NCBI GenBank assembly: GCA_050506795.1
Contig: JBJHCF010000050.1
Location: 1 to 33,479 of the forward strand
Direction of reading: 5' to 3'
Source of the DNA: Opitutia bacterium
Lineage (GTDB): Bacteria > Verrucomicrobiota > Verrucomicrobiia > Opitutales > T3Sed10-336
DNA length: 33,479 bases
How positions within the stretch are numbered: position 1 is the stretch's first letter; each line of letters opens with the position of its first letter. Shown piece after piece: positions 8,613 through 33,479 of this stretch. The notes beneath the pieces are model-generated. The model made no database searches. It saw only the letters and a program-made list of their open reading frames with translations, and was not told the DNA's origin. Position numbers and translations under genes: made by a program.

Positions 8613-8767
8613 GTCCCGCTGAAGCGCGGAGCTACGGGAGGAATCGTAGCGCCCAGCTTCAGCGGGCGTCTGTGGGGCGTGGGGAGGGCGGTTCCCGGGA
8701 AAGAAGACTCCGGCTGTCTGAAGCGCGGAGCTACGGGCGGAATTCGTAGCGCCCTGCTTCAGCGGGC
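8613..8767. repeat. Cluster of four GTAG-type REPs in alternating orientation (BIME/REPIN-like)
   Basis: CTGAAGCGCGGAGCTAC units end at 8635 and 8734. GTAGCGCCC(A/T)GCTTCAGCGGGC units start at 8646 and 8746. Period about 100 bp. Confidence 0.85.
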
Positions 8768-12593: not shown

Positions 12594-12864
12594 GCTGCGC
12601 GGGAGCGCAGCCCTCGATGGGTGGAGCCCGGTTGATTGAGTCCGGTTGATTTCTGGAGGGCCATGCTCCCGCATGGCCGCCGGTTCGGGAGCGCGGGCCA
12701 TTGTGCCCGCAGCGGCTGCGCGGGAGCGCAGCTCTCCAGGGGTGGAGCAGCCTTCCATGGGGCGGGGTATCGTGCATCGGCGAATGGCAATTGGATGAGA
12801 GATTCTCGACCACGAATTACGCGAAATGCACGAGATTATGGCGGGCAGGATGCTCGCGTTCCCA
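12594..12864. repeat. GGAG-type REP cluster between convergent genes, including a composite element at 12654-12738
   Basis: Hairpin units at 12594-12615, 12654-12679 and 12713-12738. GCGGGC-N-GCCCGC type units at about 12687-12710 and 12841-12864. Confidence 0.8.
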
Positions 12865-17097: not shown

Positions 17098-17194
17098 GGG
17101 GCGGAATTCGTAGCGCCCTGCTTCAGCGGGCGTCTGTTGGCTGTGTGTGGGGTGGTTCCGGTGAAAAGAACTGTCTGAAGCACGGAGCTACGGG
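17098..17194. repeat. Inverted GTAG-type REP pair (REPIN-like)
   Basis: GGGCGGAATTCGTAGCGCCCTGCTTCAGCGGGC is identical to 8735-8767. CTGTCTGAAGCACGGAGCTAC lies at 17171-17191. The spacer resembles 8669-8717. Confidence 0.85.
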
Positions 17195-17249
17195 GGTGCG
17201 GGACAGAGAGCCGGTCAACGAAGGCCGGCGTTACAACTTCGACCCAGTC

Positions 17250-20131: not shown

Positions 20132-23100
20132 ATGGGCACGGAACAAAAGAGGAAAGCGGGTTGGAAACGGTGGACGTTGAGGATATTCGTCGGCATAGCG
20201 TTTCTCTATCTGCTTTGCGGATTCGTATTGGTTCCTTTGGCGGTCTGGTTCGCGGCGCCCCGGGTGGCGGGCGGGATTATTGAAGGAAGCCTCGAACTGG
20301 GTGCGGTGCGCATGAACCCGCTGACGTTCACCGTGACCGTGCGCGAAGCGTTGCTGCGCGATCCGGATGGAGAAGTCGCGCTGAGCATCGACCGCTTTCA
20401 CGCCAACGCCGATCCGGTTGGCTCGCTTTTCCGCCGCGAACTGTCGGCCTCGGAGTTGTCCCTGGCCGGGTTGCGGCTGAACGTGTTAATCGAGGAGAAC
20501 GGGGAGTTGAACCTGGTCCGGGCGACCGCCTTGCGCGACCCGCCGCCGCCGCCGGACGAGCCGGCGGAACCGTTCGAGATTCCCGCAGCGTTTCTGGGGA
20601 GGTTTGCGTTGGAGGACGCTGAGATCCATTTCGAGGATCGTTCGGGCTCGGCCCCCTTCCAGTACACGATCACCTCGCTGAACGTTCTCCTCGAGGACAT
20701 TCGCACGAGCGTCGAGCACGGCAACACCTACGAGATTGTGGCGACGGGTGAATCCGACGAGCGCGTGACAGTGGAGGGCGAGTTTCAACTCAATCCGCTG
20801 AGCTTTTGGGGCCAAGTGAACGTGGACGGTTTCCGGGCGCCGGTTTACGCCCCATTGTACGCGGAGCTGCTCCCGGTCCATTTGGCCGACGGCCGTTTCC
20901 GCGGATCGTTGGAGTACCGATTTGATCCGCTGGCGGAAACGCCGCGCCTCGGGATCGCCGACGGTTCCTTCGAAATCGATTCGGTGGAACTGCGTCCCGG
21001 AGAAGACGAGCCGGCGTTCTTCGGCCTGGATCGCCTCGCTGTGACGGGGATCGCGGCCGACTTGTTCGAGCAGAGGGCGAGCGTCGGGTCCGTGGAGATC
21101 GGGCCGGGCTTCCTAAAAGTCGTGCGCGAGGCCGACGGTTCGATCGATCTGCTCGCCCTGTTGCCGGCGCCGGCGCCGGACTACGCGCTGGTTGAGACGG
21201 ATCCGGCCGTGCCGGCGGAGCGGTCCCCGATCGAATTCGGGGTGCTCTCGGGCGGCCAGGATTTGGGGAAACCGGTGGATGCGGCGCTCAGTCGCGTCGG
21301 GGAATTGACGGATGCGGACTGGATTTTCGAACTGACCTCGTTCGATTTTTCCGGATTTGTCGTCGAACTTGAGGATCGCACCGGCCCGGAGCCGGTGCTG
21401 TTGCGGGCCCACGATATTGCCCTGGGCATTTCGAACCTGACGAACGCTCCGGAAGAAGCGGCCGATGTTCAGTTTTCCCTTTCTCTCAACGACGCCGGCT
21501 CAGTCGGCGTGAACGGATCGGTCGTGCCGAACCCCGCGACCGCGGACTTGGCGTTCGAGCTAACCGGGCTGGATCTCGCGCCGTTCGCGCCACTGGCGGA
21601 GGGCTTCGTTCCCCTGCGGCTCGATTCCGCCGTGGTCGAGGTCTCGGGCGACGCGCGCGCGGGCCTGGGGCCGGAAGGCGACCCGTTCGCGGATGTTCGG
21701 ACAAGCGTTGCAGTACGGGATTTTTCGATACGGCTTTCCGGTGACGAGCACGCCTTGGCCGCGTTCCGGGAATTGACGATTACGGACGTCAAGGCCGCCA
21801 TGGAACCGCTGAGCGTCGACGTCGCGGAGATCCGCATGGTGGGACCTCGTGCCCGGGTGGAGCGTCTGCAGGATGGCTCCCTCGCGGTGCTGCGATTGGT
21901 GCCGGAAGGTGTGCCGGCTGACGAAGCGTTGGCGGTCGAAGACACTTCGCCGCCGCTGGACGACCTTGGGCCGCTTCCGGAGGTGGAGGCTGCGCCGCCA
22001 GCCATCCCGCCGCTGCCGGTGCGCCTGGGGCGTTTCGTTTTGGAGGACGGGGATATCGAATTTTTGGATGCATCGGTTCAGCCCGCCGGGCGAATTGAGT
22101 TGAAGCCGTTCCAAATTTTGATCGAGGACATCTCGCTGGAGGAAGGCACCGAAACGAAGGCCGAGTTTTCCGGAACGCTCGCCGAAGCGGGGACCATCGA
22201 GTGGAACGCGAGCACGGGTCTTGCCGATTTCCGGGAACGCACTCGACTGGAAATGGCGATTCGCGAGATCCCGCTGGCGGTTTTTTCGCCGTATGCGATC
22301 GACGGCGTCGGGCGACCGATCGACAGCGGTTCCTTTTCCGGCGATTTCAATATCGCGATCGACGCAAACGATTTGGACGCCACCAACCAGTTGCGCGTTC
22401 AATCTCTGCGCTTCGGGCGGGGCGACTCCGCCATGGGTGGTCCGCCGGTCGGCGTGGCCGTCGCCGCGCTCGAGAACCGAAACAGCTTGATCACGCTGGA
22501 TGTCCCCATCAGCGGAAGTCTCGACGATCCAGACTTCCATCCGGCGCAGCTCTTCGCGAGGATTTTGCGGACGACGGCGACCCGGGCGCTAACCGCGCCC
22601 TTGAGCATTGCGGGCTCCCTCGTCGGAGGAACTCTTTCCGGGATCTCTGTGCTTCGGTCGGCGGAGGAGGACGACGGCGGGTTCGATCACATTGCTTTTA
22701 CCGAGGGAAGTTTCGAACTCGACGGGGAAGGGCGGGAGATACTCGAGACCTTGCGGAGTTTTCTCGCCGAGAGGCCCCAGGCGCAACTGGTCGTGATTCC
22801 TGCGGTCAATCCGGAGGCGGATTTCCAGGCGATGGTACGGGCCGAGCTCGATGGCCGGCTTGCTGCCACCGGAGCGTCCTCGCGCTCCGGCGCTGTCCGG
22901 CAGCTCTATGAGGAAACGTTCGGGGATCCTCAACCCGCGGATAACACGGTGGATACACTCCCGGATACCATTGAGGATACCGTTGTGGATCCGGAGGAAA
23001 CTGAAGAAACGCATGCGCGCCGCACGGTACGCATGGCGGGCTTTTACCTTTCCGGGCCGGTTCGGCGCGGTCGTGTGGAGGCTGCGCCTCCGGAATCGGA

Positions 23101-23368
23101 AGAGATCGAATCGGAAGATTTCGAACCGGAAGAGATCGAATCGGAACCGGCGACATCCGTGCTCAGCGTGGCGGAGATGGAACGGCGACTCCTCGATGAG
23201 ATTGAACTCGATGAAGGGTCGTTGGACGATCTGGCAAACGCCCGCTTCGAAACGGTCCGAGAGTTTATAACCGCGTCCGGCGATGTTTCCAGTGAGCAAG
23301 TGTCCGCGACTCCCCACGAGGAAGGGGAGCCGGGCGCGCGGTTTGCGTTTGACACCGATCTCGAATAA
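20132..23368 (+). CDS. DUF748 domain membrane-anchored protein (AsmA-like repeats), acidic
   Basis: N-terminal TM segment LYLLCGFVLVP, then VRMNPLTF, repeated DG..DL/F.D motifs, and ITLDVPISGSLDDPDF plus FLAERPQ C-terminal pattern. Confidence 0.8.
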   Translation: MGTEQKRKAGWKRWTLRIFVGIAFLYLLCGFVLVPLAVWFAAPRVAGGIIEGSLELGAVRMNPLTFTVTVREALLRDPDGEVALSIDRFHANADPVGSLFRRELSASELSLAGLRLNVLIEENGELNLVRATALRDPPPPPDEPAEPFEIPAAFLGRFALEDAEIHFEDRSGSAPFQYTITSLNVLLEDIRTSVEHGNTYEIVATGESDERVTVEGEFQLNPLSFWGQVNVDGFRAPVYAPLYAELLPVHLADGRFRGSLEYRFDPLAETPRLGIADGSFEIDSVELRPGEDEPAFFGLDRLAVTGIAADLFEQRASVGSVEIGPGFLKVVREADGSIDLLALLPAPAPDYALVETDPAVPAERSPIEFGVLSGGQDLGKPVDAALSRVGELTDADWIFELTSFDFSGFVVELEDRTGPEPVLLRAHDIALGISNLTNAPEEAADVQFSLSLNDAGSVGVNGSVVPNPATADLAFELTGLDLAPFAPLAEGFVPLRLDSAVVEVSGDARAGLGPEGDPFADVRTSVAVRDFSIRLSGDEHALAAFRELTITDVKAAMEPLSVDVAEIRMVGPRARVERLQDGSLAVLRLVPEGVPADEALAVEDTSPPLDDLGPLPEVEAAPPAIPPLPVRLGRFVLEDGDIEFLDASVQPAGRIELKPFQILIEDISLEEGTETKAEFSGTLAEAGTIEWNASTGLADFRERTRLEMAIREIPLAVFSPYAIDGVGRPIDSGSFSGDFNIAIDANDLDATNQLRVQSLRFGRGDSAMGGPPVGVAVAALENRNSLITLDVPISGSLDDPDFHPAQLFARILRTTATRALTAPLSIAGSLVGGTLSGISVLRSAEEDDGGFDHIAFTEGSFELDGEGREILETLRSFLAERPQAQLVVIPAVNPEADFQAMVRAELDGRLAATGASSRSGAVRQLYEETFGDPQPADNTVDTLPDTIEDTVVDPEETEETHARRTVRMAGFYLSGPVRRGRVEAAPPESEEIESEDFEPEEIESEPATSVLSVAEMERRLLDEIELDEGSLDDLANARFETVREFITASGDVSSEQVSATPHEEGEPGARFAFDTDLE
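23093..23146 (+). repeat. In-frame 15-bp tandem repeat (about 3.6 copies)
   Basis: GAATCGGAAGAGATC/GAATCGGAAGATTTC/GAACCGGAAGAGATC/GAATCGGAA encoding ESEEI-ESEDF-EPEEI-ESE. Confidence 0.8.
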
Positions 23369-25128: not shown

Positions 25129-25176
25129 TGGAGGGCGGCGCTCCCGCGCCGCCGGTGTGCGGGCAAGATGCCCGCG
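25129..25176. repeat. GGAG-type REP plus GCGGGC hairpin, partial copy of the composite element
   Basis: AGGGCGGCGCTCCCGCGCCGCCGGTG is shared with 33191-33216 and is followed by GCGGGCAAGATGCCCGCG. Confidence 0.8.
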
Positions 25177-31550: not shown

Positions 31551-33089
31551 ATGAAAGACGCGGTTTACTTCAGTATCTCTACATCTCCCATTTCGCGCTG
31601 GTTCGCGAGGATCAACAAGCGGCACGCTCGGCAATGTCCAGGTCACTTCCTCTGGATTTGCCTGTTTATATTCGGCACCTCCGTTACGGCGGCCAATGAG
31701 AATCGTATCCGGCCTTACGAGGCGAACCCGTTTTTCTGGCAATATCAGGGTGAGCCGGTATTGCTGCTGGGAGGGAGCCGGGAGGACAACTTGTTCAATC
31801 ATCCCGAAGGACTGGAGGATCATCTTGATGAAATCGCCGAGGCAGGTGGCAATTACGTGCGCAACACGATGTCCGACAGGAACCCGGAGAACCGCTACGC
31901 ATTCGCGCAGACGGATGACGGACTTTTCGACCTGACCGAATGGGACGCCGAGTATTGGGAGCGCTTCGACGGCTTCCTGAACATGTGTCATGAACGTAAC
32001 ATAATCGTGCAGATCGAGATCTGGGACCCCTGGGACTTATTCGCCTCGGAAGCACCCCTCGGATTCGGTCCGGAGAACAGGGGCTGGGAAGTTCACCCAT
32101 TTAACCCGCGGAATAATATTAACTACACAGCGGAAGAGTCAGGCCTGGCCGAAGTGATCGACTACTATTCCGGCTCAGGACCGAGTGATCATGCCTTCTT
32201 TCATACCGTGCCGGCCATGGAGGACAATGAAGTGGTCCGGCAATACCAGGAAGCCTTCGTCAACCGTCTACTGGACTTCAGCCTGAAGTATCCCAATGTG
32301 CTCTACTGCATGAATAATGAGATCGGTGAGGACCCTGAATGGGGGCGACACTGGGCCCGGTTCATCCGGGAACGGGCCGATGCGGAAGGTGTGGACGTTT
32401 ACCTCGCCGACATGCGGCGAAACGTCAACTTCAATTCAGCAGAACAGATCGCGTTGCTTCACGACGATGCGCACTATGACTATTTTGAGATATCGCAAAA
32501 CAACGTCAACACCGGCCAGAACCACTTCGACCAGATCCAGAGCATTCGGAGCCGTGTGCTGGAAAACCCCAAACCGCTGAACAATGTCAAGATCTACGGC
32601 GGCGAAGGCCACGCTTGGACCGGCGGTGAACTCGAAGCGACACGACGGATGTGGCGAAATGTCATTGGCGGCCTGGCCAGTTCACGGTTCCATCGGCCCG
32701 GCCCGGAGCACCAACCTTTTGGCATCGGCGCCAACGAGCTTGCCCTGGCCCACATCCGCAATGTCCGAACGGTCATGGAGGAAGTAGGCTGGCCGGGCAT
32801 CGAACCAAACCTCGACTTTGTTGAACATGTTTCCGATACGACGGATGCCGTGCAGACACCAACCGATGCAGAGGTCTCCATCGCGGCCGCCAAAGCACCG
32901 GATGGCCGAAGCGCCGTGATATTCGTAACTCATGGAGGCCATTTCCGTGTAGACCTCGACCATCTTCAGGAAGGTATACAAGCGGAATGGTTTAACCCCT
33001 TGACAGCTGAGCGCCGGGCAGCCGAAACCGGCAGCAGTGGAAATTTTCATCCCCCGTCTCAGGAAAACTGGGTACTCATTCTGAAATAG
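31551..33089 (+). CDS. Exported uncharacterised protein, probable clan GH-A-like TIM barrel with C-terminal putative collagen-binding-type domain
   Basis: Hydrophobic leader. Motifs RPYEANPFFWQYQGEPVLLLGG, GGNYVR, FDL..W...YWERF, IVQIEIWD, YPNVLYCMNNE and C-terminal AEWFNP. Start uncertain. Confidence 0.6.
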   Translation: MKDAVYFSISTSPISRWFARINKRHARQCPGHFLWICLFIFGTSVTAANENRIRPYEANPFFWQYQGEPVLLLGGSREDNLFNHPEGLEDHLDEIAEAGGNYVRNTMSDRNPENRYAFAQTDDGLFDLTEWDAEYWERFDGFLNMCHERNIIVQIEIWDPWDLFASEAPLGFGPENRGWEVHPFNPRNNINYTAEESGLAEVIDYYSGSGPSDHAFFHTVPAMEDNEVVRQYQEAFVNRLLDFSLKYPNVLYCMNNEIGEDPEWGRHWARFIRERADAEGVDVYLADMRRNVNFNSAEQIALLHDDAHYDYFEISQNNVNTGQNHFDQIQSIRSRVLENPKPLNNVKIYGGEGHAWTGGELEATRRMWRNVIGGLASSRFHRPGPEHQPFGIGANELALAHIRNVRTVMEEVGWPGIEPNLDFVEHVSDTTDAVQTPTDAEVSIAAAKAPDGRSAVIFVTHGGHFRVDLDHLQEGIQAEWFNPLTAERRAAETGSSGNFHPPSQENWVLILK

Positions 33090-33190
33090 ATTTTCGGCTC
33101 CAGAGTTTTCAGGCGACGGTGTGGTTCCAGAAGACCACGTTGCCATAGCGGTTTGCGGTGATGCGAAGCTGGCTGTCCTGAGAGATCACC

Positions 33191-33262
33191 AGGGCGGCGC
33201 TCCCGCGCCGCCGGTGCGGGCAGGATGGCCGCGCCCCCCGGCCATGCGGGAGCATGACCCTC
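33191..33262. repeat. Composite REP element, the insertion target of the intron
   Basis: Colinear with the reverse complement of 12654-12738. Ends GGCCATGC-GGGA-GCATGACC-CTC directly before the intron start. Confidence 0.8.
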
Positions 33263-33479
33263 GTGTGCCCGGCATGGGCATGAACTAGTCATATGAAAAG
33301 AAATGATCGGGAAAAGTGGCAACAACCGTAGTGAAAGACAAGGCGGGTACCGTGAGGGACTCAGCGTGAAAGAAGTCTGTAGCAAAGGCACGACCGTAGG
33401 AACACGAACAGGCAGAGAGGCCGTGTGTGGGCGATGAGAGTACGAGAAGCTACGAAATCCAACCGCCACCGAAAGCCAC
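33263..33479 (+). mobile_element. Group II intron, class IIC, 5' part of domain I (truncated by window end)
   Basis: Starts GTGTGCCCGGCATGGG (GUGYG boundary, IIC-type). CC-GTGA-GG GNRA stem at 33350-33357, AGGAACACGAAC at 33398-33409, GAGGC at 33417-33421 and the GATGAG...AAATC segment follow the order of the Oceanobacillus iheyensis IIC intron as I recall it. Located immediately after a DNA hairpin. Confidence 0.88.

Follow-up and report, generated by a model that had tools for sequence, protein, structure and literature searches.

Class C group II introns are taught to land after terminators, with a minority that targets attC sites. The window analysed here is the whole 33,479-nucleotide contig C50 (JBJHCF010000050.1) of the 4.94-Mb Opitutia bacterium assembly G000 (GCA_050506795.1), and it ends in the 5′ part of such an intron, just behind a short hairpin that occurs in many copies in the same genome. 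This raises the question of what the intron reads at its insertion site, and whether the repeat itself is the target.

A class C intron is cut off by the end of the window

A group II intron begins with GTGTG at 33263, directly after the exon end CCTC (33259–33262), and its 5′ part makes up the last 217 nt of the window (33263–33479, plus strand), where the contig end cuts it within domain I. Rfam model RF02001 matches 33346–33479 with 44.8 bits (gathering threshold 32), the match being cut at its 3′ end, and gives 83.7–97.6 bits on three full relatives of this intron. The window intron thus has the GUGYG start and the IIC-type domain I. A search of its own genome with RF02001 gave no matches, although cmscan of the window detects the cut copy, and free folding of the 217-nt part was uninformative (z 0.36). 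The upstream gene (31551–33089, plus strand, as the intron) encodes 512 aa with a weak Collagen_bind_2 match and ends 173 nt before the intron.

Elsewhere in the window there are two further repeat families unrelated to the intron target (1625–2172, 8619–8767 and 17099–17200), one of which is also found at many contig ends. There is also a 15-nt tandem repeat (23093–23146) within a 1078-aa open reading frame (20132–23368).

Other parts of this intron family are scattered through the assembly. A second 5′ end on C62 differs from the window copy at 1 of 115 nt, two 3′ ends on C3 and C8 differ from each other at 1 of 124 nt, and C10 carries an 86% remnant. Both intact 3′ ends are followed by C and have the domain V CGC triad; their tie to the window 5′ part comes from a contig of run X4 and not from the assembly. 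This X4 contig (1933 nt, depth 11), which was matched between the two comparisons by its length and depth, covers the window 5′ part with 3 differences and C3:1–925 with 48 differences, so the two halves belong to one family. The start of C3 encodes the last 295 aa of a reverse transcriptase/maturase with RVT_1 and GIIM domains, a YADD motif and, in this C-terminal part, no endonuclease domain. Among solved structures, its best matches are the IIC proteins GsI-IIC (E = 7.5e-67) and 7uim (2.3e-51), as compared with 1.1e-11 for 6me0 and 4.1e-17 for LtrA. The protein class is taken from these matches, the tree described below having no named class references.

Near-identical 5′ parts were found at four different repeat flanks (the window, C62 and contigs from runs X1 and X4), the C62 contig stopping before the d3 hairpin. 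These copies at different flanks only suggest recent movement. The X1 flank motif was not found in G000, hence X1 gives no empty/filled pair. In 60 related genomes the protein half had no match at E 1e-40, and the intron 5′ DNA matched 10 of 400 genomes of the same order. The 5′ DNA had no match in plasmids, nor did the d3 motif in viral contigs.

We also noted other intron material. Locus L200 (G026:C32) is short owing to an internal deletion, so that the middle of the reverse transcriptase comes soon after the intron 5′ end; both its ends are intact and its flank is repeat-like. In G000, further group II intron 3′ ends and a reverse transcriptase in two pieces are present at C14:87842–87939, C7/C79:51–125 and C31:2489–3476. 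These belong to other families and, where read, are not at the repeat of the window intron.

The GAGA loop occupies the EBS1 position on a weak d3 hairpin

The initial annotation had placed EBS1 at GAGA (33444–33447) in a 27-nt segment (33433–33459) by comparison with an O. iheyensis segment, which presumably reads GAUGAG-UUUG-C-AUAA-CA-AAAC-AAAGUC. Both the segment and the tetranucleotide are present at these positions. RF02001 aligns the segment without gaps and puts GAGA at positions 3–6 of the 8-nt d3 loop. The same segment aligns gap-free to 14 relatives, and C33443, the base just 5′ of GAGA, is invariant in all 15 aligned copies; it is the likely delta nucleotide. In the sections available to us, the E. 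rectale IIC structure has delta at C183 followed by EBS1 at 184–187 (PMC10190682), and the O. iheyensis EBS1 AUAA is described as pairing with exon UUAU (PMC3669008). In the local fold GAGA is unpaired (P 0.91–1.00) and does not lie in a stem. By position, and by the covariation described below, the GAGA loop is EBS1 of a class C intron.

The hairpin that presents it (33438–33453, plus strand) is not the normal d3 hairpin that the annotation implied. In the standard register its stem forms 2 of the 4 pairs, and the predicted energy of 0.0 kcal/mol means that the fold is not stable, whereas 50 relatives range from −2.0 to −7.2 kcal/mol. There are two alternative registers, with 3–4 bp, at a cost of 0.1–0.9 kcal/mol; across the ensemble GAG is left unpaired. 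The weak stem is not a read error because it is shared by a fragment in the same-genus genome G002 (L203), where the hairpin is identical, and by a contig of run X2 with no differences over 33386–33479. As the sequences stand, it is an unusual variant shared within the genus. In the 15 aligned copies the d3 stem covaries, with 95% of cells paired, a result reached in none of 500 shuffles.

The intron follows a REP-like hairpin without a U-rich tail

The target hairpin (33240–33259, plus strand), in which a 4-nt loop closes an 8-bp stem that contains one mismatch, ends 3 nt before the intron. It is the last of a cluster of three REP-like hairpins (33191–33262). Empty arms of the same family occur elsewhere in the window: one at 12655–12678 (plus strand) consists of a GGAG tag (12655–12658) and the hairpin, its minus strand being the uninterrupted target, and another GGAG-tagged arm lies at 25130–25155 (plus strand). 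The complement of this GGAG tag begins with CTC, and this CTC (33260–33262, plus strand) is IBS1, as read from the exon, the repeat arms and the junction words. By loose counts (up to 3 mismatches) the genome holds about 245 A-type and 54 B-type arms, and 158 of the 245 A-type arms end in CCTC. Among strong arms with CTC^C (the caret marking the junction), 115 of 146 are outside a crude open reading frame mask.

We found no terminator-like site at 33050–33479, in line with the earlier claim that the target is not a U-rich terminator. The last 8 exon bases have a mean of 1.4 T in 34 relatives, so these exon ends do not have a U-rich tail either. Nor does the site resemble attC, the flank being a short repeated hairpin of which 158 arms genome-wide have a CCTC end. 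The family has the high copy number and extragenic location of REPs. GTAG or GTGG at 0–2 nt from the stem is given as defining REPs in the passages available of PMC6006769. The tag here is at the same distance, but the word is GGAG, which is not among the REP tags in the available text of two REP papers searched for it, one of them PMC6006769.

There are 16 Y1_Tnp matches in the genome. The best one, and the only one read, lies within a cluster of the window repeat with other palindromes adjoining. It is a 151-aa IS200-like Y1 transposase (L094:1405–1860, on G000:C36) with its own flanking palindromes, inside a GGAG-tagged repeat cluster.

Relatives of the intron share this target geometry, lying about 3 nt behind GC-rich hairpins. 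A hairpin of at least 6 bp ending within 6 nt of the junction was found at 39 of 45 loci; the controls gave 119 among 1500 random 34-mers and 91 among 900 shuffled sequences. When strict pairing is required, such a stem is present at 38 of 44 loci, and 22 of these stems end 3 nt before the junction (range 0–5). Read on the other strand, the four bases at the junction were GGAG in 11, GTAG in 11, GTGG in 3 and another word in 5 of 30 loci. The flank was multicopy in all six hosts tested, which were hand-picked and not a random draw (94, 111, 171, 60, 11 and 35 matches, the host with 171 having a palindrome that was counted on both strands); reversed controls gave 0 matches.

Three loop bases change with the exon end

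At the window site EBS1 and IBS1 form 3 bp, GAG with CTC, and the fourth loop base, A33447, is unpaired. A three-base match has a chance of 1/64 at a fixed place and of about 9% anywhere in the loop, so that three matching bases by themselves are weak evidence and the support comes from the relatives. The initial annotation had pointed out that GAGA pairs 3/4 with CCTC and 4/4 with a repeat end TCTC. Both ends are where it located them, the TCTC at 12733–12736 in an empty arm (12713–12737, plus strand). This arm carries no intron and is the only one of the 245 A-type arms to end in TCTC. Among ten relatives with a GAGA loop the fourth base pairs in one. Because of this, and because TCTC is found in a single arm, the guide here is GAG and the 4/4 match carries no weight.

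Relatives were retrieved with the C3 protein, which gave 80 loci, mostly from Verrucomicrobiota but also from Kiritimatiellota, Acidobacteriota, Gammaproteobacteria and others. A 5′ match was found at 59, a clear boundary at 52 and a d3 hairpin at 50 of these; one exon was too short, and 35 loci were kept at less than 95% identity. In these 35 relatives, 94 of the 105 base combinations between loop positions 3–5 and the three terminal bases of the exon are Watson-Crick pairs. Placing EBS1 elsewhere in the loop was rejected, six shifted registers giving only 6–38 of 105. The first EBS1 position is paired in 30 of 35 (17 T-A and 12 G-C; shuffle mean 16.7), the second in 32 (23.7), the third in 32 (28.4) and the fourth in 19 (12.3), where the shuffles ignore kinship. 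The loop and the exon end switch together between GAG/CTC, TAG/CTA and TGG/CCA, and other branches use a fourth pair (GAGC/GCTC, GAGG/CCTC and TAAG/CTTA). On a protein tree of 41 rows both traits change seven times. Corrected for kinship, there are four independent contrasts on well-supported branches, with 3.3 concordant and 0.1 discordant (sign test, p = 0.25).

In L023, L025, L031, L032, L038, L048 and L069 at least one of the first three positions is mismatched, and further mismatched copies are L191 and L197. In one Kiritimatiellia genome L025, L027 and L031 have the EBS1 GCAA on the unlike exon ends TTGC, CAGC and CGGA; judged by their loops and exon ends, these three are a retargeted or relaxed branch inside the clade. 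We found no fifth pair of the kind seen in the E. rectale structure (12 of 34 and 3 of 34, as compared with shuffle means of 11.4 and 6.5). Loss of the fourth pair through burial of exon position −4 in the stem was not supported either, this pair being present at 12 of 20 loci with a distance of up to 3 nt and at 3 of 7 loci with 4 nt or more.

The EBS3 and open reading frame of the window copy lie beyond the contig. EBS3 is G in L191, its closest relative (94% identical, same genus). Among the loci with a 3′ exon, an EBS3 G faces C as the first 3′ exon base in 42 of 46, and four further loci have G with the 3′ exon out of view.

Junctions in the genome lean toward the repeat

Under a generic rule, any strong hairpin followed by CTC^C could be used. 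In this genome, outside the crude open reading frame mask, the repeat supplies 115 of 259 such sites with stems of at least 7 bp and 85 of 146 with at least 8 bp. Since repeats make up 44–58% of these candidate sites, a generic rule would often reach them. A further search was blind to the repeat. Of 56 occurrences of the intron-start 9-mer in the genome, four follow CTC and all four are at hairpins of the family; these are C50, C62 and two scars of 9–11 nt on C37 and C74, the C74 site being in a diverged family member. Four of six 3′-end 11-mers were also in repeat context. With C10 included, five of five 5′ junctions are in the family, for which the site shares give a probability of 0.02–0.07 under a generic rule. 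This leans toward a preference for the repeat without being proof, and retention bias would look identical.

Several repeat arms carry 7–11 nt of an intron 5′ or 3′ end and then continue into normal flank: C37:14726 (minus), C74:670 (plus), C3:177722 (plus), C7:138881 (minus), C34:20742 (plus) and two sites on C18. These pieces are likely scars of intron loss by deletion, in both of the intron lineages found at this repeat. Because such short scars remain in repeats, the intron may explain some REP decay.

The other lineage is represented by a complete and different group II intron on C9 (G000:C9:55,7xx–57,6xx, minus strand; loci L001 and L007). It is 1876 nt long with an AGC triad and a 449-aa protein, and is inserted at the same base of the repeat, where its GAGGG loop faces CCCTC. 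In many of its relatives the exon end is also a hairpin plus CTC, CTA or CCA, as read by eye and uncounted. In the 1933-nt X4 contig, a single repeat cluster seems to have both lineages, with the IIC intron at one edge and the opening bases of the second-lineage intron at the opposite edge.

How the intron may find its site

Taken together, GAG at 33444–33446 is at EBS1 of a class C intron, and we consider it probable that its lineage finds a DNA hairpin plus the four-base complement of a REP tag, and so lands in REP-like repeats and not behind terminators. The guide changes with the repeat of each host, and for this reason the lineage likely lands on repeats. The earlier reading that EBS1 fits a REP end and not a terminator tail is thus upheld for the repeat target and the loop register. 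It loses the TCTC argument, and the base match alone cannot separate a rule specific for repeats from a generic one of hairpin plus CTC^C.

The DNA itself shows where the copies lie, which loop register is EBS1, that EBS1 switches together with the exon end, and that stem and junction are 3 nt apart; the steps proposed here are borrowed from work on class C introns. Single-stranded DNA at the replication fork would be the substrate for reverse splicing by the intron RNA and its reverse transcriptase, which has no endonuclease. The folded DNA hairpin would be held by the protein together with domain I, pairing of EBS1 GAG with CTC and of EBS3 G with the next C would fix the position, and the fork would supply the primer (for fork, hairpin grip and primer, the sections available of PMC4424553, PMC8919778 and PMC10190682). 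The invaded strand would be the complement of the repeat, with the hairpin first and the tag complement after it.

A bolder form of this explanation is that a class C lineage found across phyla is a dedicated REP parasite. EBS1 and EBS3 would read the complement of the RAYT guide tetranucleotide and be rewritten with the host tag (GTAG, GGAG or GTGG), the ribonucleoprotein would, relative to the solved IIC complex, bring the stem nearer to the active site by about five bases, and a second, unrelated lineage would have converged on the same base. We hold this only tentatively, at a little under even confidence. Somewhat doubtful in our view is that this is an ordinary IIC intron that uses any strong intergenic hairpin with matching bases, such as U-less 'I-shaped' terminators, with repeats being simply the commonest or best-tolerated sites and the resemblance to REP tags arising from this without special tuning. 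The parts of the literature available place IIC introns behind terminators 'or other inverted repeats' (PMC1702495) and give them no preference for L- over I-shaped terminators (PMC8919778). The large share of repeats among candidate sites and the use of different hairpins within one host (L063–L067) fit this as well. However, one of three tag-like words is present in 25 of 30 junctions from several phyla, the five repeat-blind junctions would be improbable, and the distance from stem to junction is about 3 nt, as compared with 8 nt in the solved IIC complex. In mechanism this reading overlaps with the one that we prefer, and the two differ on whether the match is an adaptation.

The weak d3 stem raises the possibility that the window copy is a decayed passenger whose EBS1 hairpin no longer works, its site having been chosen by an ancestor or copied by recombination. 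L191, from the same genus, has a similar stem and is otherwise damaged (a changed 5′ motif and EBS1 GAAA), and B.h.I1(X), which has 3 bp and a stem that is mispaired, failed to yield ligated exons in vitro according to the portion available of PMC1702495. This is unlikely, as the same hairpin persists in another species and, unchanged, in another sample, near-identical 5′ parts are found at four repeat flanks (although C62 ends before d3), the 5′ and 3′ ends each differ at a single base, and the alternative registers leave GAG unpaired. Help from a RAYT/TnpA-REP transposase, through a nick or exposed single-stranded DNA near the REP that gives access or a primer, is very improbable. The junction does lie within the complement of the tag that TnpA-REP reads, GTAG and GTGG account for 14 of 30 junctions, Y1_Tnp matches are present in the genome and a second intron lineage uses the same base. 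But according to the sections available of PMC8266576, recognition by TnpA-REP is confined to the REP strand, and since the invaded strand is the complement, such help is unlikely; EBS1 and EBS3 already account for the position, and a cognate RAYT for this repeat is hypothetical. A chance match of three bases beside an abundant repeat has a probability of about 9% in one loop, yet the fixed register, the covariation, the hairpin geometry and the repeat status of flanks in relatives argue against it, and the register test (94 as compared with 6–38 of 105) reduces its probability to practically nothing.

Comparison with known systems

REP-like repeats would, on these comparisons, be a third type of class C target beside terminators and attC, with 'other inverted repeats' already in print. 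The literature that we searched, as far as its text was available, contains no REP-targeting class C lineage and no EBS1 that tracks REP tags; the supplements of PMC8919778 and PMC7306698, Robart 2007, Michel 2007, Dai and Zimmerly 2002 and Mohr 2018 may cover such sites. The available parts of PMC10011109, PMC3753933, PMC4748821 and PMC7306698 had nothing further on REPs. With a third target class, one selfish element would be seen to follow the signature of another, and three RNA bases would be enough to read the change. The natural compensatory pairs GAG/CTC, TAG/CTA and TGG/CCA offer a test of EBS1 versus protein in IIC specificity, and a stem that abuts IBS1 is a target geometry outside the existing structure. 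The chemistry itself is standard.

The terminator-targeting IIC introns (O.i.I1, B.h.I1, GsI-IIC and the E. rectale intron, 7uim) share with this lineage the RF02001 domain I, the 8-nt d3 loop, the C before an EBS1 of 3–4 nt, the single-base EBS3, the domain V CGC triad, a reverse transcriptase and maturase with YADD and without endonuclease, and insertion just behind a DNA hairpin. By contrast, the window lineage has no U tail at its target, the target is a multicopy repeat, and EBS1 is GAG, TAG or TGG and not AUAA or AAAG. In the sections available, the E. rectale structure has a 4-nt spacer and a 4-nt IBS1 (PMC10190682), as compared with about 3 nt between stem and junction here (22 of 38, range 0–5). 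The stem is 6 nt from the junction in L208, as compared with about 3 nt here; L208 is the sole terminator-type comparator, the 5′ boundaries of most outgroup loci not having been found.

The IIC-attC introns (S.ma.I2 type) are also a class C subgroup on a repeated site of another mobile system that folds as a single strand, as described in the part available of PMC4424553. Their target is attC, whereas the window lineage inserts at a short and perfect hairpin tagged by four bases, and proteins of the attC type are outside the tree. Insertion sequences that target REPs (ISPpu9, ISPpu10, ISPa11, ISPsy8 and IS1397) use REP repeats as landing sites as well, but these are DNA transposons targeted by protein, whereas in the window lineage the position would be set by pairing between RNA and DNA, with bases that switch as the tag does. 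In the table that lists these elements, two of nine copies of a P. putida group II intron are at REPs (PMC1525189, from the section available). The REPs of the GTAG family and their RAYT/TnpA-REP, reported as abundant in a verrucomicrobium in the passages available, resemble the window repeat in being short, GC-rich, clustered hairpins with a tetranucleotide 0–2 nt 5′ of the stem. The window repeat differs from them in its tag, GGAG, which is absent from the REP passages available, and a cognate transposase for it is hypothetical.
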